Below are positions 19,701 to 61,754 of a stretch of DNA of 64,000 nt, in pieces. Position 1 is the stretch's first letter; each line of letters begins with the position of its first letter. Where the stretch lies: contig NC_092672.1 in the NCBI RefSeq assembly GCF_964355755.1, positions 8,432,001-8,496,000 of the forward strand, written 5' to 3'. This stretch comes from Antedon mediterranea (taxonomy: Eukaryota; Animalia; Echinodermata). The translations under genes and the position numbers were made by a program. Under the pieces are notes generated by a model. That model did no database searches and was not told the DNA's origin. It saw only the letters and a program-made list of their open reading frames with translations.

Positions 19701-22700
19701 TTACTAAAGTAATTTACTAAAATGCCAGGTCAATTTAGATAAATAGCAGTTTTTAAAGTCCTCACTCGCTTTGATGTTACGCTAGGCCTAGGCAGCCAAG
19801 CACCAAGCAACACGTACCTGCGCTGTGCTCAAATTTACCGCAGTCATATTTTGGACGCGACTCAATATTTCGTTGCCATGCGAAACAGATTTTTTTTATG
19901 GCTTACAAAAACAAATACGTGTTCGCGACGTATCCGTTTTCGTTATCGTATTCGTAAGATTGCAAAACCTCTCTACTATTAAACTTTATGTGACAAAGAA
20001 AGTCTGATGTGCCCAAATTACATAAACCAAAAGTGGCGTTGATAGTCTATATGTGCTAGCTTACCTGGATAAACCAACATTGGCCTATTCTCTCCGAAAA
20101 GAGAGCTACAACTTGAATATATAAAACTTTATAAAACACCCCTACACATCAGATAATGGTAGATTCTATGAACCCAAATATGGTAGTGATATGTCATGTC
20201 CATATATGGGCAAATCACATAAAGTTTGATAATGTAGACAGAGCTTTACAAACCTCATCTGCTCTGTATGAGCTGCATGTCCTTCCAGCATCACTGCCAG
20301 CATAGCTAGCTGCAGATCCTGCTATAGCCAGCCAGTCTAATCGAGATTCTTGTGTGAATGCAACGTCTGAGGGAGGGTTGAAAATTTCTTTGGCCTGGTA
20401 ATACAAGAAAATATTACAAGACAATAGTACAAAATAATGATTTTATGAACTAGCAAGTTTATTGAACGATTTGTTATACTCTTTTATACTATTTCTGGAC
20501 AAAGTCACACACTGTGTAAACTACCATTTAAAGTTTTGAAATTAATTCAATAACATAAACACAAATTTATCTTAATATTCTCATTAATATTTATTAATAA
20601 AACTGACTGATTCATATCGAAAAAATGTTAATTTTCAGATGTCATAGTTATTGTAAGATTAAGTTTTAATATGTTAGTTTCAGTTTCGTTGAAATACATC
20701 ATAAAATATTATTTTAATACAACTTAAATTATCCCTTTTAAAACTATGTATTATTAATTGTATTGTCAATTGAATTATTGTTAACATCATTTTCCCTCGT
20801 TTCAATTTACAAATATTTCTAATTTAATAATCTTTATATTATTAACTCAATTGAATGTAACGGTTTTTGTGATAGAAAAACTGAAGTTATAAAGTACTCT
20901 GGTATCACTGTATAGAGATAGTTTGGCCAACTATATTTGAGGCTTAGGGAGTGGAGTAAAAGAGATACAAGTACAAAACTAGCTTCTAGGCCAGGATTGA
21001 ACCCTGAACCATAACCACCATGCTACAGCTCCTCTACATTATGATTTTATTATGACTTTCAAGTTATTAGCGAAGTTGCTATAGATTCCATTCTGAAGTT
21101 CGGTCTATACTATCAAACTAGTTTGACAAAAAAAGTGTGCCCAAATATGGTAGTGATATGCCCAAATATATTATAGTGATATGACGTCATCGTGTCCATA
21201 TATTGGCACATCAAAGTTTTTGACATCACATAAAGTTTGTTAGTGTAGACAGAGCTTTACATTTTTGTTGTCATCATCACCATCATCAGATATATCTATA
21301 TTGAAATATTGAAATAAAACATGTTTGAACTCACAGCATCTAAACAATCTTTTAATACAATAACCAAATGCTCATCATTTACAGATTCTTGCCCATAATT
21401 ATCTCGTATATTCTGAACTGCCAACTGGAAGAACTGTAAAATATCAAGCAATAATTAAATACTACTTCTTATTCCCTATACTCCTGGTCTACAGCATTTA
21501 TTTATACAGCAAATATACCAGCGGCCCAAAGTACATAAATAATAATTACAAAAATTAGGTGCAAAATGAATTTTATTTTTAATGCACAACAAATAAATTT
21601 TAGACATATTTTCAATTAAAATAATATTTCTGAAAGAAAATTAATTTACTTATTTTCAGAAGGGAAATTATAAAAAACAACTTTTAATAAATCCTGACGT
21701 AAATTCATTGTAGAATGGGCAAATTAACAGAAAGTATTATAATGTAACTTGAAACATTTTAAATACCAATTATTTCTTCCAATGGTTTTAAATATCCCTT
21801 TAATTTACTGTTTGTCTTAAAGATGTATTGTCCTCCTGAAAATAATTTTTTAACATTTTTTTGTTGAATATACCATTTTAATGTTACATAATAGTTATTG
21901 ACTTCGACCAAAAATTGGATCCAAAAAAAATGTATTTACCTGAAAAAACTGGAATTTAAAGCAAAAAATGGTCAAATTGGCGGCCAGCCAATGAATTTTT
22001 GGTTGAATTTAACCATGTTTTTGGGGGACAATACATCTTTAAAGTTTGTGAGAAATTTATAATTCAGAAATGAAGGTGCAAGTGTATTGAATATGTTTGT
22101 TTTGTGACAATTCAAGATAGTACATTTTTTTTAATTTTTTTATTTTGTGTTTTATAGAAATAAACTACTAAGTAAAACTTTTTCAAGTTTTCACCACAAT
22201 CAATTTTCTACAATTTAAAATAAAAGGTTTGACCTTTAGACCTAGATTTGTCTACCCATTACATATCTAAATAAATAATCTAAATTAAAATGTGTATGCT
22301 GTGAAGCAGGCCTTAGGTTTTCTGAGCCAACTCATGTAGGGTACTGGCTTAAGCTTGTCATGTTTAACTATGATAGTTGTTATCAGTACAGTGCTAGAAT
22401 TTGTACAAATGCCAATGTTCTTCCTAATCTCTCACCTACCGTACTCAGGAAATGTTATCAATTAAACCAGTTGATGGAAAAATAAATGATTTCACATTTA
22501 CTCTAAATCATTTTTTTTTTAAATCATAAACAAGCAAAATTTTAAATTTTATTTATTTTTTCTTTTTTTTTCTTTTTCTGTAAACTAGTAATTAGTATTA
22601 ATTTGTTTTTTTCAAGGTCAATGTTATGTGTGTGTACAAAGAAAAAATAAAAACAAACGAGGAGAAATGGATCGTACTAATCGTTAACAGCACTGTACCT

Positions 22701-25700
22701 GAATATAATGTTGAAATACTTTTTCTATATCTTCATTTATCTTCTTCTGAAGAGCTCGTCGTAATAAATTTAAAGTTGTGACTGGATTAAAACTTCCACC
22801 AGACCTTCAACGACAATAAATATCTTTGTAATTGGCATACATTAAAAAAATACAGTGTTTATAAAATTAAAACTTTACAGAAACTAAAAGTCGTGGTTTT
22901 GTAAGGCCCAACCCACTTGCACAGGAAATTGAGTTGGGGAGTTTTCTTTTCAAAGTTCCCTCAGAAATGTAAAATAAATAGATACAGGAAATCCAAATCA
23001 ATGGGTTTATCTGTGGCTGCGGCATGATCAAGTCCTCGCCCCTTAACAGACACCACACGATGCAGAGACTATGTACAACATAGTACAATAATGTTGGTAT
23101 TTGTAGCAGCAAGACATAAGATCAAAAGACTGTTACAAGTTCCTATCTTGGCAAGGCGAGCTCAGTGTCCTGTTGTTAGATTGCCTTAGCAGTGGTGTCC
23201 TCCAAAACATACAGTATTTACTCTTGTTTGTTTCACCCCAAAGAACCCTGTTGTTAGATTGCTACCTTAGTAGTGGTGTTCTACTGTATTCAAAATATTC
23301 AAAACTCAAATTATCTGTATTATATTTCCAACGAAAAAGCATTCACATTTGTTATTAATTAATTCATATAAATTTGTTAAATTATCATATAAATCATAAT
23401 GTATTGAATACCTTGTTGTATATGCTTGTCCTGGCTTTCGTACAAGTCTGTGATGTTTATTTGGTGGAAATGTGTTCAACGTCTGAGAAAATGGATTTCG
23501 CTGTCAAATAAAATATGTTAATTTTAGAATAATAATTTATTCGTTTCACTCTTTTAGAACAGAGGGACACTCTTCTATAGAAGGGGTTTTACAGCATACA
23601 AATATTTACAAGGTAATAATGATTTAAAAGTACTATTTTAAACATGATGAAAAACACAATAATTAAAAGAAATTGTCATAACAAATCACTATCACTTTGT
23701 TTAATATATTAATAATGTTTCTGTAGTGGATAGGTGGTGTTTTAGGGTAGAATATATTTGGTATATTATTTGGTCATTTAGGTATACCTCATAACAGATA
23801 AGTTTAGTGTAAAACATTTATTAAAATTCACATGGTTAATATGCTTTTTAGGTATAAATAAGGTTTATGTACTTCAGTATTTTAGGTACTGAATATTCAA
23901 CATCTGTATAGCTAATTTAGGTCTAGCAGTACAGGTTGTGTAAAAACAGTACTTAAAATTTGCATAATGGAATGAATGGACACACTAGTAGAATTCTTTG
24001 CAAGCAGAACTTGGTGAGAGACATCTACAGTAGGTAAGCCACATAGAAGTAGTTTAGTCTGAGAACTTGTTTAGGATGTATAATGGTAGTGTTTGTTGGA
24101 AGAATTCTGTTATTGCTTTAATAGGCAAAGGATTTATTGTACCAGTTTGTCAACAATATCCAGTTTTAGTACAGTAAATAATGCAGTCCAAATCAGTTCC
24201 AAGTTGTTGTGTTCATCCAATGTAAGTCAGCCATTTTATTTTTCATTTAGTGTACACTGTATATCAAGGTACAGTATACAGTACTGTAGTACAGTACAGA
24301 ACTTAAGCGCATATAATATGGCTAGAAGATTTACTTATGTTTAGATAACTTTAATTTATTATTTCTCTAGGAAATAAGAGACACTTAATAATAAACAAAA
24401 ACAGACAAACAAAAGCAACATTTTAACTGTCTAGTCAAACATTTTTTAGCTGTGTCCAGTTTACTTGGTGAGAAGTGAGTAGGGCTAAAACTAGCTCTAG
24501 TTCACACAGCTCCTGTCGTGAATGAGTACATGGGGAGAAGTTATTAACTTAATTTGTTTGTTTTTTTTTAAATGTTTTCCTAATAATATAGCTTTTGCTG
24601 TCTACCATTAACCAATGATTTCCACTTTATTGGCATCAATTTCTTTTTTGATTTTAAATGCTTTAAATAATACTTTTAAGCAATACACACCCATATTTTT
24701 TTAAACTGAAATATTACTGGTGAAAGCAAAGGAACACCAAAATACTACACCATGCCCCTTTGGGTTACTGTACATTTCCTTTCAATACAGCTTTACACTC
24801 GGTTAAGCAAGTGAGTGGTTAAGACAGTGGAACCATAATTGCATAGCCATAATTTAACATTGGTAAGGATTTGAGATGAGTAGGGGTACTAGTACAGTAC
24901 ATAACAGCCACTGATCATAACTGGGCCCTCTGTGAGACCAGTCTTTGACTGAAGAGATTGCCCAGTATAAATAAATATTAACGAACAAACACTGCATACA
25001 GTACATACTATACAAGCATGTATGGGTTTTCCAGGTACTAGACTACTAAACATGGATACGTACTATACTCTCGGTCAGACTAGATCGTTTTTCTTGAAAT
25101 CTGTCTGCAATATTGCTTATGTTACTGTTTGCTCCACCATTCCGGCAACATGTTGTAGACGCAGGCCTAAAAGAAAAAAAAACAGTTTTACCTTTATTGT
25201 ATTGTTATCTACAACTTAATATGTTAGCAAGTTACTTTACATTGTCAAATTTTATTAGTATACTGTACTTATCAATTTATCCAGGATATGGTATACAGTA
25301 TAAAACATATTCTCATTAGTTAGTACTGTAGGTGACAATTGTTGCTCATAAAGAGTTTAACAATTTTCAAATAAATCAATTAAAAATTGATTTAACTTTA
25401 GGCATTAAAAAAGTAAATTCATTAGTGCATTGTAAAGTTAATTGTCCAGTGTTGTCCACTTTTCCATGATAACTACAGGTAAGAGTAAGAATGAGCACAC
25501 TGCATACATGTTTTAACACTGGCACACCAAACGCCTACAGTACAATACCCTATGCAGTGGGACACGCCTACAGTACAGTACCCTATGCAGTGGGACACGC
25601 CTACAGTACAATACCCTATGCAGTGGGACACGCCTACAGTACAGTACCCTATGCAGTGGGACACGCCTACAGTACAATACCCTATGCAGTGGGACACGCC

Positions 25701-28700
25701 TACAGTACAATACCCTATGCAGTGGGACACGCCTACAGTACAATACCCTATGCAGTGGGACACGCCTACAGTACAGTATAATAACTGAGTGTAAGCGGAC
25801 ACTGTATGTTGGGTCCTGACTGAAGATATCCCCATTATACTAAGTAGGTATAATCATGGAGGTTTAATACCTCCATGGTATAATACTGTATAGTACTGTA
25901 CAACAGCAGTTGACCGAGGGCGCCTAATAATACAATTTAAACAATTGCGATGTAATAAAGAAATAGTAGGACATATTCATTTTGGCAATTGTTTGGCCTT
26001 TAACCACCTTCAATTCAAAACTCTGGATCTGTCACTGGCCATCTGAATCTCAAAACAATAGTAGTAGTCTGTGAATTCCCAGAAATCAGTTCAGTACGAT
26101 AATCATGACAAATCCCTTTATTCAGAAGCCTTTAATCTATCACAAAGCCTTGGCAACCCTCAAAACAGGCCGACCTGGATTTATGCTTATTTGAACAGCA
26201 AATTTACCATAGGCATGTGATTCTTGGAAATGGTATGTTTACAACTGAACAGAAAGCCTATCAATAATAGTACAACCATGGACCTATCAATTATAGGTCC
26301 ATGGTACAACTGTATCAAACTACTTCCGTAGTACTGTACACTATGTACTACTGTACAACCACATTATAAATTTTGGAACAGTGTATTATCAATTGTTTAA
26401 AAACGGTAAATAAAAAAAAAATGTAAAAAAAAACCAGTGCATTTACAGTACTGTATTAGGGCACATTACTGTATGTATAGTATAGGAACTTGACGAATTC
26501 TGGCAGTAAATATTTGTGCTGTTTTTAATGCAGTGTCAAAAATGAATCAAACCATTTTCCTTCTTTTTTCTTTCACTGTTCAGCATTTTAAAAATTCACT
26601 AAACAATTAACTGTATTGTAAATATACAACTTTTAAATTATAACAAACTATGCTGATTCAAAAATGATGAATGAGTTAATTATTAAATATTATCTTTAAT
26701 TAATATTTAAAAAATCCAAAAATGTTTATGACCAAAAACACAAACTTACCACAAATTTTCCATAGTGGAAATATATCCTGTGTTTTGATCAAGTATACTG
26801 CAAAACACAATGGTTACACTTTAGTAATTAAAATGTCTATGGCCTTGACTCCGGAAACAAAATATCATATTATACACATATTTCACCCACACAGCCAAAA
26901 AACATAGATTTCTAAGTAAAACTATATTTAACCTACTTTATAATGCCTCCAATGTGGAAGTACTATAGGTCATAACAATAAAACAGGAAAATTGCAAAAG
27001 AAAAATTGTTTTGATTGTTATTATTAGTAGCTGTACTGTACTGTACACTCTGTGTTTGTGATACCAAGTAAATAAGTTATCTTATCTTATACCAAATTAT
27101 TATTAAAACGGTAACAATGATTAATGATAATGAATTTTGCGTGAGGAAGCGGATGAAAAAATTAATTTTCATGATCTTTAAAATATTCAGAATGCACAAA
27201 TAAAAAGCTCAATCAAACTTTTAAAATTTAAATTTAAAATTAAATCCTTCAAAAGGTTAATTTATTTAAATTAAGTATTCATTGACAAAAACAATTGTGC
27301 GACAACTAAAAGCACAAAATAACACTACTAAATTAATTTTCAAATGAAAAAATAATTTAACAATGACATTGTTAACATACTGTAAAGGCATTGAATAATA
27401 CAGTACATACTGTAATTAACAGTTCAATATGGTCTGTAGTAATCCGGGCTTCACAACTTGCAAAAATGAAATATTGGGCGGTTTTACTATAAAAATACAT
27501 CAAACATACAATAGACAGTGCTAATTACAAATTTAAAGGTTGGTATTAAAAATACATGCCAACACACAAATTATTATAAATATCTTGAAGACCGATAGGG
27601 TTAACATTATTGTTTTTCCTTCTATCTAGAGTAATAGAAAATAGAAATTAATTCTGGAAGATTTGATTGATGTTTCTGTTAGTTTTTTGTTGCAATTGTT
27701 ATGTGAGGCACCTTGAAGCTGTGCAATATATTGAATAAAAAATTTTAAAAATCAGGATATTTTTTTGTTTCCAAAATATTGGGAGGAAATTGCATTTTAT
27801 CGGGAGATGGCTCCTGCCATTATCGGGACAGTTGGGAGGTCTGGAGTTAGATTCAAAACACTCGGTCAATGCCAAGGAAACACTGAATACTGTAGTTTAT
27901 TCAGATTTCCTTAATATTCGTCATTTTCCACCTCCAACGACAAATTAAAAGTGGGGCTAAACGTCAACTATCAAGGTCAAGAAAATCTTGAGTGCGTCAT
28001 CAATTAATTCAAACTAATATTTCATTCACAAAGTTAATAAGTTTTGTGATTCATTATTACACAAGATCTTTATTTCACTTTGACCTAATTAAAAAGGTCT
28101 TTGTTTTAAATAAAGTCTAGCTCCTGCACACATTACTGTGTATTATATATGTCTAATGTTTACTTCAGTACTAACTTAATAAAAAGGTTTTAAATAATTG
28201 TGATATTCATTTATTATACAAATAATTGAATGAGAAAAGGATGTAATAATTGAAAACCAACGAATGGCCAAATTGATAGATTAAATTAATACTGTAAATA
28301 CTGTACATTCACAGTCCACACACACACATTCACTTTGTTATTATTTTTTTGCTTAGTGTCCAGTATTGACTGTATTACAATTTGTTTTTATTTGTCGCTT
28401 ACAATGTACAGCTGTATTAAGCTCTGTCTACACTATCAAACTAGTTTTATGTGTCTATTTATGGTAGTGATACGCCCAAATATGGTAGTGATAACATGTC
28501 TATACTGTATGACCATTTTTTTGTTGCATAAAGGTTGATAGTATAGACAGAGCTTTATATTAAAATCAGTGTATAAAAATGACCTAACGAAAGATTTTTA
28601 ATGCAGGAAACGCTTAGTCGTTGAGGTTCCTGTCAGAGAATAAATGACGCTTTTGTGAACGGTCACACCTTTAGATTAACATCCCCTACCTGGCTGGAAG

Positions 28701-31700
28701 TGGAAGTGGACTGGCTTAGAATAGAAGCCATCATTTATCAATTGTTATGCTTATTTAATATAAGATTACTGTAACCTGCAGAATTAAATTCATGTACAGC
28801 AGGTAAACTATTTATTTTTGGAAAATTTCTGACATAGAGTACTGTACGGTACATAATAAGAAGACACTGTAACAAGAAGCCACTGAACTTTAAAAACAAA
28901 TGTTATTGTTACTTTTATTTAAAGAAATTTAAATTTTACCAATAATTGCCAATATACCATAAAATATGATGTTGGCAAATACTCTAAATGCTTTCACAAT
29001 ACAATACAAAGAAATAAATATTGTGTGAACAATCCTACTAAAATGTGGTTGCAATCCTATCTGGCTTTGAGTGCCAGCTCAACTCAAATGCAGGGTCATA
29101 TTTTGGTCAAATATGCAAGGATTGTAACCATGCCCTACCACCAGCACTTTTGATACTAACAGTCCAGCACTTAATGAATTTATTGGTCAGCTTATAGGAA
29201 TTTAGCAAATAAAGATTAAAAAGATAAATAGTCAGCAGGTAATATAATCATTGTACATGGTATTCAAAGAAAAATGCTAATGATAGCAATTGTAAATAGT
29301 GAGTGGCATATTTCCTATTGTTTGTACCTACAGCACTGTATGTTGATATACCTGTAAAATTGAAGGTCAGACGTTTCCCAGGGTTTGAATAATATTATTG
29401 ATCCTCCTGTGAAATATGCTGCAGCTTGGCTGAAACATGTTTAATAAAGTACTATACTAAATCCTGAATGTAGTGTGACCAGTATAAATATAGACATTTT
29501 TAGCTATGTTTTTTATGTGAATTCAACCAAATCAAGAGAAAGCTTTATTACAGGAACTGTTAGTATGAAACTAATACTGAATAATAATATTAATACACAC
29601 ACATTAGATAATATAAGATAAGAAAGATATACTTTATTGCATGTTTATAGTACAACAAAGATTACAATTTACTGTACATGAAATTTGACATAAAATATAG
29701 ACACACCACTATCTGCTGTACAGTACTTCATTGTGTTTTATTGTTACAAATAGACAAAATTAACTTTACTGATAATTAACTGAAATAATATAATTGTTTA
29801 TAATTATATATTATTTAATAATGTTTTTTTTTTATCAAAGATTGTTTTTGTAAAACGTACAGTACTGTATCCAAAGGAATCTAATTCATAAACCAGAATA
29901 CTAAATAATATTAATAATTAATAACGTAAATCTGGAAGTTAAATTAATTAGTTAAAATTACTAAAGTGAAACAATATAATTGACATTAAATTAAAAGCTA
30001 AAAAGTGTGAATTTTTAATTCCAGTAACGAACCCTGTTAACATTAGATTATACAAATTATTACTGTACCAAGAACTATTCATTCTGGCCATATTATTACC
30101 ATACAATACAGTAGTGTCTGACATACAGCACTCTTGTCTAATAATGTACTACTGTACTAACATTATACAATAGTGTAGACACTATACAAGCTGGTTTTAA
30201 ATAGAAAGGCATGAAATGAATGACGTCAAAGAGTGTACACTACACTGCACTCCATATGCACAAGTCTACTCATATCCTGATGAGGCCAACTTATCATACA
30301 CAGCGAGGGAATTTCCTCACTATTTACACATAAGATAGACTAGACTGTCCCTATAAAATATAATTATTCAACTCAACGATCAAAAGCATTTGTCAACAGT
30401 AACACACAATTGAGACTGAGAGTTGCCAAATCTAAATATACTGAACAAATGTATAAATAACTCTTCTTTGATTTTTTAATGAATTGCAGTACATTATCAT
30501 GTCAGTGTTTTATAACTTTCAATTTCTATCTCATACCATAGTATGAATCATCAGTAATAATTAATTTCACTATACATTAGTAGTAGTACAGAAGGTAGAA
30601 GTAGTGACACAGTAGTAAGTCTTGTGGTTAGATTTTAGACTTTTATTTAGGCATTTATTTTTATCATAGATTTTGCAAACAAATGATTTATTTAAAGCTT
30701 GGTTCCCACTATAGGATGCAACACTAGAAAATTGATCAATCATGATGATGATAAGTTTTATTAGTATTAAATTATCAATAATTTTATTCCAGGTACCCAC
30801 TTAGAACACCTCTGGACACACCTCCCTTCCCCCCCCCCCCACCCCAAAAAAAAATCTCTAAAACATACTGTTTTTCCACCCATTTTCTAGTGTGATATAA
30901 AAACCCTTTTTTTTATACAAATCAAATTTTAATTTGATACAGTACTTGTGCACGGTATTTCCCATAATGGTGAAATACTGTAACAATGCACTCTGACATT
31001 TAAATAATTGAGGATTTATTGTAGCATATTTTATGTAAACAGTTCTTTAGTTTGCACATTGTAAAAATGTTTTGAAAAATTGAATCAAATTTCAAGAAAC
31101 CATGTCTGTTTTTCAAAATGCAATTTTTACTAATAATAATAGCCTATTGGCTACATAGTTTAGAGCAATAACAAATTTAAATCAAAACTAGAGCGACACT
31201 GACAGATAAATTATTTTATTTTATTATTTTTTTATATCGGAAACAGATACCTTTTATGCTAATCTTTTATGCTAATGTGAAACTGTTGAATGAAATTGAT
31301 TTTGTACAATAATTTATGAAATGTATACTGTACATTATACTACTGTAGTAGTATAATGTACAGTATACATTTCATAAATTATTGTACAAAATCAATTTCA
31401 TTCAACAGTTTCACATTAGCATAAAAGATTAGCATAAAAGGTATCTGTTTCCGATATAAAAAAATAATAAAATAAAATAATTTATCTGTCAGTGTCGCTC
31501 TAGTTTTGATTTAAATTTGTTATTGCTCTAAACTATGTAGCCAATAGGCTATTATTATTAGTAAAAATTGCATTTTGAAAAACAGACATGGTTTCTTGAA
31601 ATTTGATTCAATTTTTCAAAACATTTTTACAATGTGCAAACTAAAGAACTGTTTACATAAAATATGCTACAATAAATCCTCAATTATTTAAATGTCAGAG

Positions 31701-34700
31701 TGCATTGTTACAGTATTTCACCATTATGGGAAATACCGTGCACAAATCAATTATATAATTATTATGCGAAACTACTGTATGCATTGTCTACCGACCTACA
31801 GTTATGTTTGAAGAAAAGTGGGGATTCCCCTAACTAATAATCCAGTTATCATGATTCCAATGATAAGGTTTGTGTAATCTAAACAAACAGTACATTTCAA
31901 ACAATTGAAAATTGTTGTATTGTAGGTTTATGATTTTATTGTTTGCAGATGGAGGAATTATTTAGATAAAATAAATAATTCCAGCTTCATTTTAACTACT
32001 TACAAATACTATAAAACTAATGTAATTTTCTTGACTGTTGTACAGTCAAGAAATGTCTCAATTTGAACATATATTTTTGACAAAATTATATCATCTTTGC
32101 GCTTTATAATCGCTAGCGCGTTCTACTATTTCATGCCGTTCATTTCTGTCGTGGGCTGGGTGTGATAATGTAGAATGTTACAAATAATAAATTTAATAAA
32201 ATAAATCAAAGCCATTGTTTTGTTATTTTAAGCTCTGTCTACACTATCAAATTTTATGTGACAAAAAATGTGATGTGCCCATATACATGGACATGATGAA
32301 GTCATATCACCACATATATTTGGGCATATAATCACTTTACCATATTTGGGCACATAACACTTTTTTTGTGAAACTTGTTTAATATAGTGTAGACGGGCTT
32401 TTAACATTGGTACTGAATTTGGGGTTAAGGTTAGTAAGTGGGTCAGTCCTAACCCCACATTTACTCTACCATCTATTTTTGGATGGAACCGACAAAGGCA
32501 ATAGCTCATATCTAATACGGTAAGGTATTTAATAATAGAGCATTGGATTGATTATCATTATATTGTACAACAAACAAAACATTGTCTTGTACAATACAGT
32601 ACAGGTGTATGCTGCACATATTCTCACAGTTACTGTCTAAGGGCCCGTTTCTGCTGCCAACCCAAAATATACCGTATAAATATACCGTATAAATATACCG
32701 TATAAATATACCGTATATGAAATTCGTGCACCGTTTCCGCTGCACATACTTCGTGGGTGGGTTGTAAAAAAGTTGGCTTTCATTACCCAAAATGCATTTC
32801 GTGAGACGGAAGTATGGATTGACCTAGAGTCTCGTGTAGTGAGGTTACATGACAGCATTGCTTTCTATTTTAAATCTAATGAGCAGAAGTGGCAACGAAT
32901 TTACACCGCACATACAAGCACAATCTAGAAATGTCACTATAAATAAACTCTGTTATTCAAATTGAGTTTATATTATGCTATATTATCCTATATTGCCGTT
33001 TTAATTTCCATTTTCTATTATACAGTATTTTACCATGATTTTACATCACGTTCTTGTCGTGTAAGAACATTTGATTTATTGTATTTAAAATCTCGGTATC
33101 TCTTCTGTTGCCATGCAGTCTCCCCCCCCCCCCCAACCTTCGCTTCCCCCCCACAATTGAATTGCAAAAATAGTGATTTGTTCGGTCCACATTGACATTT
33201 TGATCTGTTGCTTGCTTTTACACGTGTGTTTCAACTTTCAATGCAGCAGAAAAACCAAAACAAACGCGTCGCGCTCTGTTAGTTTTTGACCTCGTGTCAC
33301 GAGTCGGGTCACATTTACGGTATATTTTGAGTGCAGCAGAAATGGGGTACGAAATATACGGTATATTTTGGAATATACCGTATAATATCCACAAACGATG
33401 GGGATATTTATACGGTATATATACCGCATATATATACGGTATATTTTTTATGAGACCCATTTCTGCTGCCAAAAAATATACCGTATATAAAATATACCGT
33501 ATATATACGGTATATTTTTGGCAGCAGAAACGGGGCCTAGGAAACTGTTGCATAGAATATGTACTCCAAGGACATTATTAATTGGATCACAATCACAAAC
33601 CATAACATTAGGAATAATTACAATGACATTGACCTTGAAGCAGAAATGACCTTCACTGGTCCTTGGCAGAATTAGAACAGTATGAAAAATGCTTAATAAA
33701 CCAATGAGTTATAAAATGGGGTATGTTCAGATCTATGGAGTAATAATGCTTAAATTGTATTGCACACAATGTCATATTATAATTAGCGTAGTAACATCTT
33801 TATGCAGGAATAATTAATTGGTTGAAGGTCAAAATCATTGATGCATGAATTTCGTAACGTTTACTAATCTTGTACCTTCAGCTGATGACCGAAAAATCAG
33901 TGTCGTAAGAGGTGGCTTCCAATTCTTTCCTGGTTCACACCTATGGAGTTGTACGTAGCATACGATACGAAATCACAACTCTATAGGTCTGAACATTCCC
34001 ACAGCACAGTACATCTCTACATCAGATTCGATATTTTTTTGGGTGTAATAATATGGTAACATACCCTTTATATGACAAACACAACGCCTAATCAATTAAT
34101 TAATACTGTACGACATAGAAATATGCTCTAATACAATATTGTGTTATATGCAAGTATGTACTGTATTTGTGGCGGGCGTTTATTTGAGGAAATAAATGAA
34201 CGCCCCGGGTTGTTTATTGGGGCCGAGGCGTTTATTGTAAAAACTACGGTATTGCAAATTAATTTTAACAAGAGCATCTAGAACGTTTGAACATATGGTG
34301 CATAAATGGTTTTATATAATTCTACAAAGTAACCCATCTCCTCCAAGGCCCTCTACATGACAATGCCAAGGTGGGGTGAAATAATGTATTGTTGAGTAGA
34401 GTACTGGATTGGAGGTTAGCCAGGTAAATACGATTACCACCTAAAACAACCTGCACGAAATGTCGGTCACAGGTCGATGAAGATGATAATAATACTTTTT
34501 GCATCGTTCTTTAAGCTCCCCAGGCCGATGTGAAATTAGGCTAGATTCTAAATTATGCATCCTTGCTTGGAAAAATACGCTATTGACCCATTGTATTGCT
34601 TGGTGATCTACCAGATCTACCCCAACGACAGTAAAAATAATTACTAGGCTAGGTAGGTGACACGAACGACAAACATTCATCAGGAAGAATAGAAATCTAC

Positions 34701-34899
34701 GGTAAATCCGATTTACTTGGACGTAGAAAGCCATAATTAACAAATGCTTTCTAATCCTAATTAAGTTTTGCACTTAGATTATTTATATTACTTGACTTTC
34801 AGTGTAAATTTAACAAATAAATATTTGTAATTTGTGGAAATTTAGTCAAAAAACTTACTGCATCGCCTGTGCAATCAAACCATTCGCAGCTTCTGCCAT
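16752..34899 (-). CDS. DNTTIP1: Deoxynucleotidyltransferase terminal-interacting protein 1 (TdIF1; MiDAC HDAC complex subunit), ~349 aa
   Basis: Minus-strand exons 34899-34859, 26777-26750 (tentative microexon), 23500-23412, 22804-22699, 21433-21335, 20394-20254, 19111-19046, 18518-18340, 18193-18133, 17718-17594, 16866-16752; phases consistent. Translation includes the dimerisation region LNLLRRALQKKINEDIEKVFQHYIQFFQLAVQNIRDN, AT-hook-like KRKGRPP, and C-terminal domain REGPKWNPNRL...FVMGAKANKALGLGATRGRLYMKHPNVFKYSGDQDDKQWL...MPATGGKAYLMIKEDI...ELKSFVVP, matching DNTTIP1 as I recall it. The first two exons are less certain. Confidence 0.92.
19208..20245. mobile_element. Composite foldback: two inverted ~265-bp family-A-derived arms around a ~500-bp TIR element (19472-19975)
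   Basis: 19208-19471 is the near-exact reverse complement of 19976-20245. The inner element ends are tagagaggtttcgcaa / ttgcaaaacctctcta. Confidence 0.85.
21821..22038. mobile_element. Kolobok-like MITE (TTAA TSD; TIR AGATGTATTGTCC)
   Basis: ttaa|agatgtattgtcc ... ggacaatacatct|ttaa. The same left end occurs at 11447 in MRM1 intron 6. Confidence 0.75.
25531..25778. repeat. 33-bp minisatellite (acgcctacagtacaataccctatgcagtgggac) x~7.5
   Basis: Head-to-tail units with no spacers. Confidence 0.92.
30946..31745. repeat. 800-bp near-perfect palindrome (two 399-bp arms, 2-nt centre)
   Basis: 30946-31344 is the reverse complement of 31347-31745 at every segment I compared. Confidence 0.92.
32641..33537. 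mobile_element. Non-autonomous PIF/Harbinger-like element, ~900 bp
   Basis: TIR gggcccgtttctgctgccaa / ttggcagcagaaacggggcc, subterminal aaatataccgtat repeats in both orientations, flanks taa/tag. Confidence 0.7.
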
Positions 34900-35995
34900 C
34901 TTGAATTGCGTTGATGTGATGCATGCAAAGAGCAATCCCAGCACAGTGGGGTTGAAGGTCAATATTTTGTCAGGCCTTGGAAAATAGCGCCCTCTACAAA
35001 TAATGCGGAAGTAACTCTTTTAACATGAGTACAGTTAATATAAGCCTAATTAACTATATAACTAAATTTAAACATTGCGCTTTAGATAAAACAACTTTTT
35101 TCATTACGGAGAAAGAAAGAGTTGGATTGCTATTGTTTTTTCCATGTCCCTGTTATTTGGAAGAACATTTTTGTCGAATATTTAAAATTATGGCCCCCTT
35201 ATGATTACTTGCTTAATCCAGTAATTATCCGATAGTTTATTTGAAAAGACATTTTATAACTCAGTTTCAGTGACGCCGGGGCGGGTGGAGGAGGGATGGG
35301 AGAGGATGAGAACGTAACCAATGTGAAAATACCGGGGTGGGTGGTGGGGAGAGAAGTCTCCCAATTTTATTTTCCTATAACTTTAACGAGTATTTTACGC
35401 TCTTTGGAAGATTTCAGGGTTCCTTCCTTTTTTAGAGTAGAAACAGAGAGTGACAATGCATTCTTACACTGTTTCAACCACCGTCGTCTTCTGTTTTCGT
35501 CATCTGTTGTCGTCATCTGTTGTAGGAAGATAACTATACTCCCACAATTCCTTATCACCATGTCCTTGTACGGTTATCGAGAGTAGTCACAGCATACGAA
35601 TAGCGTGCTCAGTGTTATTAACTGAAACCCTACGTCTGAAGAATCACTCATCATCCAAACTCTTATACCAAACTTGCTTGCATGCTTATCTTGAAACGCG
35701 ATCTTAAACAATTAGATCATCACAAGAAATAAAAAATAAATTAAAAAAATACTTAAAAATCCAAAAAAAGTTACTAAAACTTATGAAATAAATGTAAAAA
35801 TCAAATTCATACCGGTAGTTCATTACCTAATGTTTTTTTTAAAATGCATAAAATTTACACATTCTTCCTCTTATTTGTCATATAAATTGAGACAATTTGT
35901 GTATGGTACATTTATTTATTTTTTATCCCAAAAAAAATACTGATACCTGATTATAAGATATATACAAATTTGACAGTTAACCATTATAAATCATT
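34900..35995. promoter_or_regulatory. Divergent intergenic/promoter region between DNTTIP1 and the putative cytokine
   Basis: Head-to-head start codons ~1.1 kb apart. YY1-like caagATGGC at the DNTTIP1 start, ETS-like gcggaagt at 35005, agcgccctcta at 34986 and a GC-box ggggcggg at ~35278. Confidence 0.45.
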
Positions 35996-38799
35996 ATGAA
36001 TTCATTGAAAATAGTGTTTGGATCATGTTTTGTTATAAGCGTGTTACTGTTTATTGGCGTTGACACTTGTACACTTAATGTGGCTATACGAAGTACCGAG
36101 CTCACAATAGAAAAGGTGCTGACATTAATTGGAGAACTAGTAAGTAGGCCTACGGCATTGCTTTCATACATTTTACAAAACAATTCTGTCAAAATGTGGG
36201 TTGGGATGAGAACTGAAAATAAGTACATTTATTTCGCTGGTTTCTTTTTTTTTTAAAGGAATCTTAAAATACTGTCTCAGATTTTTATTAGACGCTAGCT
36301 TTTATTATAAATTGTGTGTCAAACGAAGCCCCCTGTTTAAGGTGTCATGTTGACAAAAGTGTTTTACCCGTATTAATTGTATTCATTATAGTTTTCAACT
36401 ACAGTATAACATGATCGTATATCAAGCCCCAAGAAGTCTGTATTTATTGTATTTTTAATATTCGTCCAGCAGTCGACGTATTGATTTTTGTCTGAAATTA
36501 ATAGTAGTATACGTACGGAACGCCATATGTGCCAAAATATTTATCTTTATAAATATTAAAAAGTCAAAAGTCAAAACTCCGTCTGGAACCCAGACTAATC
36601 TAGAAGTATACGCCTATACATTTTTGTATCATTATTATCAGTATACGCGTATACGTAACACGTTAAGAAGTATACGCGTATTACGTAACACGTTAAGAAG
36701 TATACGCGTATACGTAACACGTCAAGAAGTATACGCGCATACGTAACACGTCAAGAAGTATACGCGTATGCGTAACATGTCAAGAAATATACGCGTACAC
36801 ATAAGAATTATGAAGTAGGCCTATACGCATATACGTAGAAGTACGCGTGTACATCAAGTATACGTACTGTATATTATCATATCAAGAAATATACGCGTAT
36901 GTTATTAAATCTATTAATTATCGTTTATATGCAGAATGATTGTGCTCATATTGATAAGAACGTAACACTGTTAAACACGGTAGAAGATTGTCTAGAAGAT
37001 ACTCGTGCAGTGCTTTCTCACGTGAGTACACACATTGTAGTAGTTATATTCAGACTACTGTATTTGAAAATTAGTGTTAGGCCTCCACAGTAAACAGTTG
37101 GTAATTGTGGGTGGCACACATATTATCGTGTAACATGGTAGTATATAATCTCACATGTTATTGTTTATTATTATCATCTGATCAAGCCGCAAGTTTGTAA
37201 ATAGACAACTCAATCCGTTTCTGCATGCGCGTGTGTAATGTTTTGGCAAGGGAAGGATGACAACCCGATTTGTGTGACGATATAGAGGGCGCACTTGACA
37301 TTTACCTAAATTACCAATAATAATTATTATTATTATGTTTACCTATTGTCTAATTACGGATACAACAAGTAGGCTTAGAGAATAAAGAGGCTAAACTTAA
37401 TTAAGGGAGTCACGGCGGGTTGGTTACGAATTTCGATATTTTAATTATGTGTATGTATTTGAACAAGTATTATTTCAATATTTTGCAGAATCGGGTTACA
37501 CTAACGTATAGACTACTTCATAACATTAAATATTACGTTGACTGGCTGCAGACAGTGAATCCATCATTATGTGTAGGCGACAATTTCACGTTGTTAATTT
37601 ATTTAGAGAATCTTCGAAATAACAGTATGGAACGTGTAAGTAGTATAAACTTAAGCCGTTTGTTCAGAGCTGGGAAAAAAATAATAATAATTTTTCAATG
37701 GCAAACATCTTTGCGAGAAACCAACATAAAGTTAAAAAGGACCATGCGGTGTGTAGATTAATAAATAGGCCTTGTTTCTTATATTTTTATGCAACACACA
37801 TATCACCTGAACTACTGTATTTTACGAGATCAAATTGACATTTTTTCAATGCTGATAATTTAAAATAATAAATAAAAAATACGTTGGTTCGTCTAGGTTA
37901 AATCATGGAGGAATTATCTAAACAATTCCTCTATGGTTGAAGCATTCTGAATTTTGATCAATGAAGATGGTATTAATTAATTAAAACTTTTATTACAGAT
38001 GGAGAATAATAGTCAATGCCAGACACAAAGTAACGTTCAAAAAATGAATTGCCTAGAAATAGATGTAAGTGAAATTTATTTAAAATTATTATTATTTAAA
38101 ATATGATGTTTTTATATTGTAAATGTAAATGGGGGAATAACCTGCGACTTGCAGCCTACTGGGATGAATTTGCGAACATGTGGACGACACATAGCACAAC
38201 TTTGTTCTCCCCTAAGTTGTGTCGATTACTGCCAGCAAACGGCGCCTGTCTGTTCGTCTGTCCACAACGACAGGGGCTAAATGGACCAGTACACCGAGGT
38301 AACCTACTCTTCCCGAAAAATGTACTACAACCATAAAGCAATCTGTCATGAGTTATCGACATTGTTGTGTGTTTTCAATTCAGTTTTGCTTTACTTTCGG
38401 ATTCACGTCCATTATAAAAGCTACACAAGTTATTTCAGCACAAACAAACAAATTTAAAAGATTTTAAAAAGACAAAACTATGCACAGTATATTATATTAA
38501 CCGGTATCAGATCATCTCAGGATCATTTTAATGAAGGCTGGATAGAAGAGGAAAGACGTAACACATAACAATAATAACTATTAACATCCATAGAATAATT
38601 AAAAAGTATTATTATATTTTCACGTTATACACTATTGTAATTGGTTATATTCGATAGAAACTTGTTATTTTCATTGTTTGTTTATTTGTTTGTTTAGGTC
38701 GTCCCTAGCAACCAAGCGACAGAAATGGATTACGTAAATATACTTTGGAATTTACATCATTTCCTCTATCATCTAAAGTACGAAATTCAACAGTTGTAA
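35996..38799 (+). CDS. Uncharacterised secreted 181-aa protein; putative four-helix-bundle (helical) cytokine, 5 exons
   Basis: Exons 35996-36139 (144 nt), 36935-37021 (87), 37489-37635 (147), 37999-38064 (66), 38698-38799 (102 incl. TAA). Donors are gtaagt/gtgagt/gtaagt/gtaagt and acceptors are YAG. All introns are phase 0 with no stops. Protein: MNSLKIVFGSCFVISVLLFIGVDT-CTLNVAIRSTELTIEKVLTLIGEL|NDCAHIDKNVTLLNTVEDCLEDTRAVLSH|NRVTLTYRLLHNIKYYVDWLQTVNPSLCVGDNFTLLIYLENLRNNSMER|MENNSQCQTQSNVQKMNCLEID|VVPSNQATEMDYVNILWNLHHFLYHLKYEIQQL*. It has a signal peptide, 6 mature Cys and 4 N-glycosylation sequons. The gene model is well supported; the cytokine identity is inference. Confidence 0.8.
36603..36900. 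repeat. ~28-bp degenerate CpG-rich minisatellite (aagaagtatacgcgtatacgtaacacgt)
   Basis: Tandem units contain the palindrome tatacgcgtata; lies in intron 1 of the putative cytokine. Confidence 0.8.
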
Positions 38800-40090
38800 T
38801 TAACACATTCTATGGGTTTTATGGCGCATGGCGATATATATACGTTTGAATAAGCTCGTAAACGTGTTTATTTGTATGCTTAGAAGAACATAGTGTGACA
38901 CATGTATGACCCTCACTTTAGGTACTTAGGAAAACTATAGATCGGATTAAGGGGAAGAGTTAATAATAGTGTTCTTCCTACGAACCTTATCATGATAATA
39001 CTTTCTCTTACAAGTTGGCCTAGTTTTATTTAGGATTGTTCCTCTTCGTAATTAGAAATTAAGCAAGCAAAAACAAACAAATTTGATTAAATCGCTCTTT
39101 TCGTAGATTTTTTATATACAATAGGATTTTTGCATATTCTAGCATATTTTTAAATTTATATTAATTAATTAAGTATACATCAAATACCGATGCTGGTCAT
39201 CGTTTGATGTGGTATTAAAAATAACATGACGTAATTACAATTGCAATGCAATTTAAAAATGGCATGACAAGTAAGTTCTATGAATTTTGTATTACCGCTT
39301 AGTAGGGACTTTTTACGGCACGTGTTATAGCTAATCGGCTAACACGAATGTATACACACAATTTATAAATAACACTCTGATACCAGAATTTGACAGAAGA
39401 AGCAAAGACAGTTGGAGCCGCTCATTGGTTTTATAGACATGCACGAACATCGTCGACGTCATGTAATTCAGTAAAGTCCCTTTTTATTATAGCTTCTGCC
39501 AAAACATGATCAGGATTCCATATGTATAAACTATTAACATTACTCATTGATGATTGCCACTAGTGTGACACTACTCGTATAATACGAGTGACTGTTGAGT
39601 GTCACACTAGTGAAAATAGTGAATGCACCCGAGTTTCACACGCCCACGCATTTAATCTACTCTTTTTGTCACGGTTGTGTCACCTTAGTAAACAATATAC
39701 CTGGTGTGTGTATTATATTGTATGGATGTCCATTGTCACGATTGTGACACCCGAATGTCACGCAGGCACCCGACAATGCCACGAGTGGCACCCGACAATG
39801 TTCGACACAACTCATTTTTATACTCACGAATGTTCGCCGAGTGTCCCTTGTGCTATGATAATTCTAACAGTTAGTTATGAGACTTGTAAATTCTATGAAT
39901 TGTATAATCATAATATTGTTACAGTTGTTGTTTTTTGATTATGAAACTAATAAAGTGCTTTTATTGTTTAATTTACTCTCGCAAATTGTCTTTTTGTAGT
40001 ATTCATTTTGACCAATATCTCTTGTTTCTGGTCTGTTGAGAGTTTATTTCTATTTTCTGGATTTCGATCCAAGAAGTGTTTGTCTAGATA

Positions 40091-42231: not shown

Positions 42232-44268
42232 ATGGAAAAGCTTAGCATTTTGTTATTATTCCTTGCGTCGTATATTGTTGTGTCTCTAGCGAGAAATTTC
42301 GCTAGTGTTCAATTCGATACAGAAGAACGAAAAGTTCACATCCAACACAATGGAGTGACTGTTTTGGAGACTAGCACTGGGGAAAGGGATGAAGTCGATT
42401 TGGTATTCCGTAGAGCATCAGATGGGCAACATTTTATACAAGTTCTGATGGACGGTGACGGAAATCTGAAAGACTGTGAGATCACTGAAAATAAAAAAGC
42501 ACTGCGAGAATTTTCATCACAATTTCAAGAACTTGAACTCGTACTCTTGGGACGAAAGGACAATGCACCGTATTTGGAAGCACCAATAAAATCCATAAGT
42601 GCGAATGAACTTGTAAATATAGAGGATATTAATTACAAACAAAATGGTAACGGATGGATGCATATATCATTCCAAAATATATCCGAGCTTCCTTCCGAAC
42701 TAAGTTCCGTCGTTGATGTGCAAAGTTTATTAAAATCTTGCCATATATTTCAAGAAGAAAACAAAGACACTGAAGTAGGCCTAACTGAAGCAGGAATGGA
42801 CAATAATGAATTAGGCCTAGAGAATCATCATTCAAGATCTAAAAGAGGTATCTCGTTCCCCGGAACGTTGTGGTGTGGTGGTGGCACGAACGCACAGTAT
42901 TACGAAGAATTAGGCGAGGAGGTTCATGCCGACAGGTGCTGCCGAGAACACGACCATTGCCCACTATACATCAAAAGATGGGAAACTAAGTTCTACGTTA
43001 GTAATCGAAGCTTCTATACATATTGCTACTGCAAATGTGATAAAAAGTAAGTAACACATTTATGTTATTGAAAATGTGTATTTTTTAGAAAATTCAGCCT
43101 TCCTTTGTAATACTATAGGCGAGACTTAAAAAAACATACAAGGTCCAGTGTACACATCTGGCTCGTCTGCACTTTAAAGCAAAGATACTACGTGGCGCTA
43201 CACGATCTTTGCTTTAAAGAACCCAGTTCATCTTTCGGAAGAGTAGGGGTCCATTCAGCCCCTGTCGTTGGGGAACAGACGGATGAGCGCCATGGTGGCA
43301 GCACTCGACAGGAAGAGACCATTAGGGGAGAACATTTACATTTTATGTAATGTCCAGTCATTTTTACCCTATATATATATATATAGTATTATAATAGGCC
43401 TATTAATAAAAAACCCTGAACAATATTGAGTGGTAGAATGTCCATGGAACTTCGGATTCTCTCATTTAAGCCATCCCTTAGCCTCAACTCCAATACAGTA
43501 ATAATATATTATAGTAATACTCCCCCTCGGCACTTTCACGATCGATTAAATATATGTACACTTGCCGGTAGGTGGTTTAAAGATTAACATTTGAACTTAT
43601 TAATATTTCTTTTGATAATTCTACAAGTTGCTAAATTAGTCTGGCAAACATTTAATCACCATCCCTAACAACCATGCAGTACCCACTCGCTTGATGAGAT
43701 AAACTAGTGTGACAACCTGTTTGTTCACAATTGAGGTTTGCCTCTCTTTACTTAGGAGTATAAACCGGTTAAGGATAGGAAGTGGTCTGTTTACAATTCG
43801 ACTTTTGAATAATAAGATATTTTAGACCTAATACTTAGACACACACATTATTTGGGTAAAGCCAAAGAAGGTCGTAGATTAAACCAAAAACCCATAAATA
43901 TTGAAAGAGTACCACCCTTTGTAATTTTTAGGCAAACATAGTTATGAAATACGTATATAACCATAATTGCTTGTTTCCGTCACAAGGTTTTGTCTAATGT
44001 CAGTAATATTTAAATGTTGTCTTGTTATCTGTTGATTTTTGCTTGTATACATTATATTATATTTTACGACTTTCAACCCTGTTAATAGTGACGTTTGGTC
44101 ACTGTAGGGTGATGATGAAATAAAAGTTAAAAAAATTATAAAAAAAAATCAATTGAAGACTAGCTAGGATAGGGACGACGTATTGAGGTAAAGATTCAAA
44201 GATTCAAACTTTATTCTCATTAGAAATTACAGAACAACAATTGAAATTACATTACAATAAAACGTATT

Positions 44269-54879: not shown

Positions 54880-56519
54880 TATATCATTGGTCAGTCCGTA
54901 TGTTAGAATTCCAGTATTTTCTCTGTAGGCCTACGTTGACGTTTAACGTTAACGTCTACAAGATCTGATTAACTTTTATTTCTACTTAATAGCTTAAGTC
55001 GAGTCGAGTGGCGAAAGAGGAACAACGAAACATATTGGTTAAGTTGAACTAAGTATGTGGAGAGACAAACAAAATGCAACACAGAAAAACGAGGTGAGGT
55101 GAGAAATAGACATGATGAATTTGGAAAACATTGACCAAGATAGCCAGGCCTTCTGTGTCCCGGTGCGTAAAATAAGAGAAATTACATAATATTTCGCTGA
55201 AATATGATTTTACGGATATTTCACGATATGAGAAACCAATAGGCCTATAGTTCAAACGTTCAAGGGTCGTGAGAATTTGTAACACGGAACCAAAAATCAT
55301 CCGATGTTCCCAGGAGGTACCTGGTAGCACTGTTTGATGGCGTAGTATATTTAGATGTATGTGAAATCTTAAACTCATGCTGCTGAACTATTGTGTTGAA
55401 CAATTTTGCTTTTTCAGCTTTCATAAAAAAAAATGGACACAGATCTTTTTTTGAAAAAAATCATTAAATTGAAAAAAGAATTGATAAAAGAAATATTTTG
55501 TATAATAAATTCACGTTTCCGAATATAAATACAAATTTGTAAAATCGCATGGTTTAAATTCAGGAAAATTATGAAATATATAGAAAGGTATTGAAATATT
55601 ATTGAAAATTAACCTAGTGTAGGCCTATATTAAGTGAAGATGAAGTGAATTCTTCTCTGTTGTACCTGTATCGTTGACGTACTTAATGTTCGATTTTTGT
55701 TTATAGAGATCCGTGACGGGAACTTCACGTTAAACATTACAAACTCGAGTTAATTAAAATATTCACACCTTGGATTGCTTTCAAGTATTTCATTCGAATA
55801 CTATGTCAACAAAAAATGAAAGTGGAACTATCCTAACGTTGCCATCTGGGTCAAAACTCTACGAAATTTTGCGAAGTATGTATGGAACGACATAACCGCA
55901 CATATTGCGCATTTCAAGCACCCCTGCCGCGTCCCGTAAGCGATACTTTTCGGCGCTAAAGACGATGTATCGCGTTTCTGTTACACTTATTCAGCTTGCC
56001 AAAAAGACACATTGTAGCTGGGGTAGACGGTGACAGCGGCCAGGACAACCGCTGTGCTAGATTATTAACACACAAATTCGTGTCCGCTCCAGCGAGGACA
56101 CTCACCGATAGTATCGTACGATTTTTTACGCATATGTTATTGTTTTGATTTTAAAATTATGCGTCAAAGATGACTGCCAGTTCTTCCAATTGTATAGTAG
56201 ATTATGCCGTAACTGGGTATTTTATAGAACTATTACTAAATACTACAAATTTAACTTGTCTGGAGAGTTAAAAAGAATGAAGATTAGAAATACAAAAGAC
56301 GAACTGGAGAGTTAAAGAATGGACATTGAAAGAATAGAGGAACAATGCAGAGTAGAAATAATGAAATTTGGGAATAAAGAGAGGAAATGGAAAGTAAATG
56401 AATGGACATTTTAAAGAATAGAAGAAAAGAATTTGAAGAATGGAATCGAAACTTTTTTAATTTACATTGTTTTACTTACTAAGAATTCCATTCTTTTTTA
56501 ATTGTTTATTTAATTTTTG

Positions 56520-59500: not shown

Positions 59501-59865
59501 TTTACTCTTTATTATTTTACTGTCCATTCTTTTACTCTTTATTATTTTACTTTCCATTCTTTTACTCTTTATTATTTTACTGTCCATTCTTTTACTCTTT
59601 ATTATTTTACTGTCCATTCTTTTACTCTTTATTATTTTACTGTCCATTCTTTTACTCTTTATTATTTTACTGTCCATTCTTTTACTCTTTATTATTTTAC
59701 TGTCCATTCTTTTACTCTTTATTATTTTACTGTCCATTCTTTTACTCTTTATTATTTTACTGTCAATTCTTTTACTCTTTATTATTTTACTGTCAATTTC
59801 TTTACTCTTTATTATTTTACTATCAATTCTTTACTCTTTATTATTTTACTGTCCATTTCTTTACT
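56520..59865. repeat. 30-bp satellite (tttactgtccattcttttactctttattat), ~110 copies, 3.3 kb
   Basis: Direct reading; 29-bp deletion variants shift the frame and generate the spurious long ORFs. Confidence 0.97.
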
Positions 59866-61754
59866 CTTTACTCTCATTTTATTATGCTTTTCTTTATTTC
59901 ACTCTTCCTTCTTTTTCTCTTCCCATTCTTTTACTTTCATTATTTTACTGTCCATTCTTTTACTTTTTATTGTTTACTTTCCATTCATTTTACTCATTAT
60001 TATTTTACTTCTCTTTATTTCACTCTTCTCTTTTTCTCTTCCCATTCTTTTACTTTTATTATTTTTCTTTCTATTCTTTTTCTTTCTATCTATTTATTTT
60101 TCTTCTTCTATTCTTTTTCTCTTCGGTATTTAATCTGTTACATGCATTCCCTTCTCTTCCACTACTTGTTTTTAAATATTTTTTTTCACAATGCGTCATT
60201 TTGTCTTAATTTTATTTTCGTTTACTCTTGCTAACTTCCTTTTTCTTCTTGTGTTTCATATTGCAATTTATCTGTGTATAGGAATTTAAGTAAAGTTGTT
60301 TTCAATAGAAATGTATAGTTTTAAGTGGAATTCTTTAAAATCTGTAAGTGTTACATTTAGTCACGTTCCATTTTCTTTGTTAGAAAAATTCATCAAACAA
60401 AAGAAACCATGATTTCTTGGTTTAGATTATAAGCCACGTGTTATAATGGAAGGTTGGAGTGTCACGTTAGATTTCTGGACAGCAGGGAACTATGTTGGGT
60501 GCAGAATAAGTGTAACATTCATTTCAATTTAGTAGTAATAACGTCTCTTTAAATCCCTCCGTTGCGTGTTTTTTAGTGTTTTTTAAACGAAAAGTATAGT
60601 TATTTTTGGCAGAATAGGATTCTGGTTTGAGACAAGCTTCTGTTGTAACGATGGTGGGAGAATGGTGTTTAGTTTGATGCTTACTACTTCAATACTACTT
60701 CAACAGATGGAGAATGGTGTCATGTGAGGACGAAAGGAGGATGTATGCGACAACGCACGTGATGACCAGCCACTTAAATTAACAGTTTGATGATCCATCG
60801 CTTATTTGAGAGATGTAGGCCTATGCCTATCGATTTGCTTCTGAATTAAAGTTATTATGCTAGCCTTCAATTTTCATAAAGCGTAAGTAATGTTTATGTT
60901 GTGTTGCTCATAAATCCAGAGTAATTTTACACACGACAACAATTTGTAAAATTGACTACAGTTTTGGCCTGTTGCCAAACCTAATACATCTTAATCAGTC
61001 TCCAGCGCTGTTTCCTTTCATTATTTTCAGATAAAATTGGTTTCACTAATTGGTACTCCTCTGTTAAACAAAAGCCGATGCAATTTACAAAGATAAGTTG
61101 TGTTTCGCCTCAGTAGGATATTAATGTAGATACATAGGCCTACAGCATGTTAATTTAAAGCTGCAGTTTCACTCCTGACTATAAAACATCACCAAATAAA
61201 AATCATTTTTTCAGGTTGGAGAAGTGACAGTGCCACTTTAAGTCATCAATTAATGTTGAATACGTCACGTTGATCTTGTGGAAATTGCTTGAATATTTCT
61301 GACATCTTTTTGGAGGTGTGTGGTAGGTGTGACGTGGGTTCGTCTTGGTCACATGATTAAACTGCATAACTTATTAATGAGCAGACGACAACTTGTGACA
61401 CACTTTCATTTAGAATTTAATTCGATAAAAAATTGTGGGATAGATTAAGGGATAGAAATGTTTGCGTATATCAGGGTCAAACATCTATTTCCATTAGATG
61501 AATAGTAAATTTACTTTCATAAGTGATAGGATATTTATTAAGTTTGTATAATAACTAAACTCTGTTTACACTATCAAACTAGTTTGACAAAAAAAATATG
61601 TTGGCCCAAATATAGTAGTGATGTGATATATCATAATGTATTTTTTTTTTTTAAACCATATTTAATGAGGGTGATCCATCCAGCATTTAGGGACCCTCAG
61701 AGGTTCACAAGACAAACATATACAAAAGATGCTTGACATTAAAACAAAGTCTTA

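Follow-up and report, generated by a model that had tools for sequence, protein, structure and literature searches.

A five-exon, phase-0 gene in the crinoid Antedon mediterranea that may encode a secreted helical cytokine

The window, that is, the whole 64-kb stretch of DNA that was analysed, comes from the crinoid Antedon mediterranea and contains a five-exon candidate gene along with the following genes and features (positions are those of the window).

6792-10734, plus strand: RNA methyltransferase gene with a SpoU_sub_bind domain, upstream of the candidate gene
16755-34899, minus strand: DNTTIP1 gene, 11 segments matched to the Anneissia japonica protein; intron 1 spans about 9.7 kb
34900..35995, no strand assigned: head-to-head interval of 1.1 kb between the candidate gene and the DNTTIP1 start codon (34899, minus)
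35881, no strand assigned: possible TATA-like site within the head-to-head interval
35974-35976, no strand assigned: possible 5'-UTR splice acceptor within the head-to-head interval
42232-43050, plus strand: large phospholipase A2 exon coding for a hydrophobic leader and a long pro-region, followed by the beginning of a PF05826 domain (E 1e-20)

The sequence-only reading had placed this DNA in an invertebrate, and this assignment holds: the candidate gene sits beside a crinoid-like DNTTIP1. Nine of the 11 DNTTIP1 exons are 86-100% identical to those of Anneissia japonica, and the other two are 62-65% identical; one exon is 93% identical to A. japonica and 61-73% identical to the other 44 matches. 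The RNA methyltransferase, presumably MRM1, contains 16-residue Arg/Ser/Asp-rich repeats (about 7200-7560) and 17-residue acidic repeats (about 9200-9480). The phospholipase A2 gene downstream of the candidate, which we take to be of the group III type, has its large exon covered by a contig of run X5 ending at the likely donor. The head-to-head interval likely holds the promoters of both DNTTIP1 and the candidate gene. The candidate gene itself is composed of the following parts.

35996..36139, plus strand: coding exon 1 (144 nt, 48 codons), with a hydrophobic N-terminus (likely signal peptide at about residues 1-24, from hydropathy), Cys25 and a candidate helix A (about residues 27-48)
36140..36934, plus strand: intron 1 (795 nt, phase 0), donor GTAAGT at 36140
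36935..37021, plus strand: coding exon 2 (87 nt, 29 codons), the likely A-B connection, with Cys51, Cys67 and one sequon
37022..37488, plus strand: intron 2 (467 nt, phase 0)
37489..37635, plus strand: coding exon 3 (147 nt, 49 codons), with two predicted helices, Cys105 at a loop end and two sequons
37636..37998, plus strand: intron 3 (363 nt, phase 0)
37999..38064, plus strand: coding exon 4 (66 nt, 22 codons), a polar connection before the last helix, with Cys133, Cys144 and one sequon
38065..38697, plus strand: intron 4 (633 nt, phase 0)
38698..38799, plus strand: coding exon 5 (102 nt, 33 codons plus TAA), with a single predicted C-terminal helix
38800..39954, plus strand: possible 3' UTR, with candidate poly(A) signals at 39086, 39214 and 39949

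Re-derivation of the coordinates, phases and splice sites reproduced the originally proposed model of five phase-0 exons (144, 87, 147, 66 and 102 nt) with perfect GTRAGT donors. Every exon consists of whole codons, and the spliced product is stop-free over 181 aa and terminated by TAA. All four introns open with GTRAGT and end with CAG or TAG. Only five plus-strand GTRAGT sites occur between 35000 and 40000, and four of these are the donors of the candidate gene; none of its four introns includes a second GTRAG, and retention of any single intron introduces 7-14 stops. An in-frame stop at 35987, three codons before the ATG, fixes the start codon and excludes an upstream coding exon. A short tandem repeat with internal palindromes occupies about 36600-36900, within intron 1.

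The probability that such a structure arises by chance was assessed by scanning both strands for phase-0/phase-0 GTRAGT exon candidates, with 150 simulated 64-kb windows for comparison. The real window yields five such candidates, three of which are the chained internal exons of the candidate gene. Of the 150 simulated windows, 23 had a longest chain of 0, 126 of 1 and one of 2, and none reached 3, although the significance of this result is somewhat overstated because the criteria were set after the gene had been seen. Contigs of one DNA sample match positions 36573-38144 and 38251-39469 (exons 2-5 and their surroundings), two of them carrying a 3-base gap; this sample is possibly the source of the assembly, so that the match would not be independent support. 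Taken together, we consider the five-exon model to be almost certainly real. That the gene is silent or has recently died, or that its splicing differs from the model, appears very unlikely: it would be in keeping with a model drawn from genomic DNA and with an exon GC content (0.32-0.38) hardly exceeding that of the introns (0.29-0.35), but it is difficult to reconcile with eight canonical splice sites, four full-consensus donors and 181 open codons, as well as with DNA contigs that agree over exons 2-5 with 0-1 differing letters.

The product contains Cys residues at positions 11, 25, 51, 67, 105, 133 and 144, six of which lie C-terminal to the presumed cleavage site in front of residue 25, and sequons at residues 57, 109, 121 and 129, confirming the six mature Cys and four N-glycosylation sequons that had been listed for this protein. 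The previously proposed signal peptide is borne out, by hydropathy, insofar as the N-terminus is the only strongly hydrophobic stretch of the protein, whereas cleavage before Cys25 is a supposition. The mature 157-aa chain produced by such cleavage has a computed mass of 18.3 kDa and a pI of 5.1. The 181-aa product has no dibasic site and is therefore not a typical neuropeptide precursor.

The four segments that had been described as amphipathic differ when the hydrophobic moment is compared with that of shuffled sequences. Helix A is amphipathic (shuffle P 0.019), helix D is borderline (0.095), and helices B and C are not significantly amphipathic (0.41 and 0.84, respectively); the four best amphipathic windows combined are equalled by 150 of 1000 shuffles. 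A further amphipathic stretch spans residues 60-77 in exon 2, a region that had been taken for a loop and that may be an extra helix. The proposed helices in exons 3 and 5 are predicted by AlphaFold2 from each exon alone, as a single sequence. For exon 3, the model consists of a helix (exon residues 2-23), a five-residue loop and a second helix (exon residues 29-48), with a mean pLDDT of 77 and a pTM of 0.41; for exon 5, it is one long helix (exon residues 4-32), with a mean pLDDT of 90 and a pTM of 0.54. AlphaFold2 tends toward helices on short single sequences. Such fragment models thus provide modest backing for the helicity of exons 3 and 5, and in structure comparison, the exon 3 model matches generic hairpins only. 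The exon borders lie between the predicted helices of exons 3 and 5, and none of the six mature Cys is located within the predicted helix cores of exons 1, 3 and 5.

We consider it probable that the gene encodes a secreted helical cytokine, with class II and IL-6-type class I about even. The leader would be cleaved before Cys25, leaving a 157-aa chain of 18 kDa in which helix A of exon 1, helices B and C of exon 3 and helix D of exon 5 would form an up-up-down-down bundle, its two long crossover connections coming from exons 2 and 4; the loop lengths of this candidate bundle appear compatible with such a four-helix fold. Cys25, 51, 67, 105, 133 and 144, being at the N-terminus or in the connections, could form three disulfides that pin the loops, and Cys25-Cys133 would be the pair most natural by topology. 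Judging from what is known of the family, the glycosylated secreted protein would join two receptor chains and activate JAK/STAT signaling in an immune or tissue-stress response.

The search for relatives bears on a substantial, if less probable, alternative, namely, a secreted helical glycoprotein peculiar to crinoids and unrelated to cytokines, for instance one with a structural, adhesive, gamete or defence role, whose phase-0 layout would be coincidental. No relative was detected for exons 1 and 3 in a word search of 5.8 billion proteins, or for exon 3 in a phmmer search of 1.84 billion proteins, the Atlas and metagenomes. Queried singly at E up to 10, none of the five exons matched a cytokine model in Pfam, where queries of 22-49 aa have little power, and, up to the same E value, the same short queries yielded no cytokine match among the sequences of solved structures. 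The few database matches to single exons are chance or repeat matches, and there is no second copy of the gene within the 64-kb window. This lack of a homologue in exon-level searches, together with that of a cytokine signature, argues for an unrelated glycoprotein, as does the general predominance of phase 0 among introns. The overall amphipathicity, which does not exceed that of shuffles, points in the same direction, and so does the upstream region: no canonical NF-kB, IRF, STAT, AP-1 or CRE site is present in the 1.15 kb preceding the gene, where less than one of each is expected by chance. Downstream, ATTTA occurs six times versus 5.3 expected, with no excess, so that the promoter and ATTTA results give no support for inducible, short-lived expression.

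Because A. japonica proteins were present in the database searched, a close annotated orthologue is unlikely, although a diverged or unannotated one could exist. The absence of relatives also fits the fast divergence of helical cytokines, whose families share 5-15% identity (PMC2654155), or a gene that annotation has overlooked, as happened with IFN-upsilon (PMC8863823).

The signatures of known families occur in the candidate at chance level. IL-10 motifs 1 and 2, as given in PMC4338397, are matched at best at 5 of 10 and 4 of 9 positions, and 1999 and 1995 of 2000 shuffles, respectively, do as well. From PMC3271213, the IFN-gamma helix F signature is matched at 4 of 7 positions, a score reached by 475 of 2000 shuffles, and the IL-6 Cys/GL signature at 3 of 6, reached by 1051 of 2000. 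The type I IFN motif CAWE is absent before the last helix, but in fish group I IFNs, too, it is less conspicuous according to PMC4929537. With the IL-10, IFN-gamma and IL-6 signatures at chance, the candidate cannot be filed in those families; such results would lower the probability that it is a member of a given family, not that it works like one.

The gene layout allows a comparison with class II cytokines. The candidate shares five exons and four phase-0 introns with IL-10, -19, -20, -22, -24 and -26, the intron-containing type I IFNs of fish and frogs, IFN-lambda and IFN-upsilon, and, like class II helical cytokines in general, it has an N-terminal hydrophobic leader, a length in the range of 160-200 aa and several predicted helices. 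Its fourth exon, at 22 codons, presumably has the size of that in IL-10 and IL-22. Compared with the N-terminal pattern of IFN-upsilon, it is a near miss: a Cys would open the mature chain, with Ile where W/L is expected. Unlike the class II families, the candidate has no sequence match and lacks the IL-10 motifs, the IFN-gamma signature and CAWE, and unlike known class II cytokines, it belongs to an echinoderm and is single-copy in the window. Being a five-exon gene, it also differs from IFN-gamma, the gene of which has four exons (PMC3271213, PMC5332411).

This layout has itself served in searches for interferons and IL-10 relatives. In agreement with the claim that phase-0 introns between helices typify helical cytokine genes, five coding exons separated by phase-0 introns were a criterion both in the screen that found IFN-upsilon, which also asked for a signal peptide and several helices (Chen et al., PMC8863823), and in the work of Wang et al. 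(bioRxiv 10.64898/2026.05.30.728932), whose filter, as described there, combines 0-0-0-0 phases, a signal peptide, a length under 300 aa and helicity. Fox et al. (PMC2654155) describe the five-exon plan without split codons as common to all six IL-10-family genes, IL3, IL21 and IFNL1, with introns dividing the helices from one another at corresponding points, and caution that gene-structure screens yield many false positives, which weighs against reading the candidate as a cytokine. Fish type I IFN genes are reported to have four phase-0 introns (PMC4929537), IL-22 exons 2-5 to keep their lengths (PMC11358693), and the class II five-exon plan has been called ancestral (PMC5332411).

The genomic model of the candidate passes the class II filters at the gene level, with five coding exons, four phase-0 introns, a hydrophobic leader and 181 aa, that is, fewer than 300, as do the lamprey and lancelet interferons of Wang et al. 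The class II fold criterion is five or six helices, and three are predicted here, on exons 3 and 5 alone. In the sea lamprey, the same filter reduced 132 genes to 14 with a signal peptide and under 300 aa, and these to one helical gene, the interferon (bioRxiv 10.64898/2026.05.30.728932). The other 13 of the 14 were not taken to be interferons, which favors an unrelated glycoprotein in the crinoid as well, but it was the helix filter that eliminated those 13 genes; exons 3 and 5 of the candidate, in contrast, are predicted to be helical, with borders between the helices. A helix pair with a short loop in the middle exon, followed by a long terminal helix, would also be what a crossover bundle needs, and this argues against an unrelated glycoprotein. 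The lamprey and lancelet interferons were folded whole and induced ISG-like genes, and the lamprey interferon bound CRFB7/CRFB14, whereas the candidate is compared at the level of the gene and exon-fragment predictions. That the candidate is an echinoderm class II (interferon/IL-10) cytokine is a tentative proposal. Our slight lean towards class II, with class I about as likely, stems from the position of the likely signal peptide and helix A together in exon 1 and from the phase 0 of every intron.

For class I, the proposal would be a long-chain cytokine of the IL-6/IL-11/G-CSF/IL-12p35 type, acting via a gp130/Domeless-like receptor, with the five-exon phase-0 plan ancestral to both classes; this, too, is possible but doubtful. 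The predicted helices span about 20-29 residues and the connections about 26-30, lengths that agree with a long-chain bundle by the dimensions that are used to tell long-chain from short-chain bundles, and the predicted helix of exon 5 is long and unbroken. The helix lengths, the long-short-long order of loops and the five exons resemble those of IL-6, IL-11 and G-CSF. By the same dimensions, the predicted helices are longer than those of the short-chain cytokines IL-3 and IL-21, with which there is no sequence match. Also in favor of class I, IL-6-type receptors have been reported in echinoderms, and IL-6 itself has not been reported in invertebrates, according to PMC13203501. Weighing against a long-chain class I cytokine are the chance-level IL-6 signature (3 of 6) and the position of the first intron: that of IL-11 lies 7 bp past the start codon (PMC3271213), whereas the first coding exon of the candidate is 144 nt, with the intron after codon 48 and an in-frame stop upstream. 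Of the two options originally put forward, the layout fits IL-10/IFN better than IL-6/IL-11, but not exclusively, because IL-3 and IL-21 also have five exons and no split codons (PMC2654155). Insect Unpaired (Upd1-3) resembles the candidate in the proposed role, that of an invertebrate ligand of a JAK/STAT receptor, but has been reported only in insects (PMC13203501), and no sequence link to it was found.

In invertebrates, the receptors, kinases and STATs of the JAK/STAT pathway are present, and the ligands described so far come from insects and shrimp alone, as summarized in PMC13203501. In our literature search, we came across no account of a helical cytokine from an echinoderm, and the accessible text of a 2026 review of sea cucumber immunity does not contain the words JAK, STAT, IL-6 or IL-10 (PMC13673367). 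Structure together with intron phase has already led to an invertebrate IL-1 (PMC13736523). Wang et al. found interferons in lancelets and none in two sea urchins and one tunicate, and in June 2026 claimed that no animals other than lancelets and vertebrates have interferons. The two sea urchin proteomes yielded no secreted protein with the IFN fold, a result that counts against our reading of the candidate; the main text of the preprint names neither crinoids, echinoderms as a group nor hemichordates, the species list being in the supplement (bioRxiv 10.64898/2026.05.30.728932). A class II ligand in a crinoid would contradict this claim and would date the origin of such ligands to the deuterostome common ancestor, earlier than the basal chordates. 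Such an outcome, which we hold as a tentative possibility, would be surprising, but the evidence for it comes from the exon-intron layout and from predictions on single exons. By passing the class II filters at the gene level, the crinoid candidate offers a direct test of where class II cytokines arose.

Several repeats elsewhere in the window are of separate interest. A satellite at about 56460-60230 consists of roughly 30-nt units with a strong strand skew (GC skew to -0.73) and has stop-free frames of up to 1144 codons, although it is likely non-coding. The palindrome TAGGCCTA is present in 21 copies in the window, versus about 0.6 expected from base composition. The segment at about 32228-32340 is a very high-copy repeat, with thousands of contigs from every run and sharp ends at 32228-32230, suggesting that it is the terminus of an abundant mobile element.
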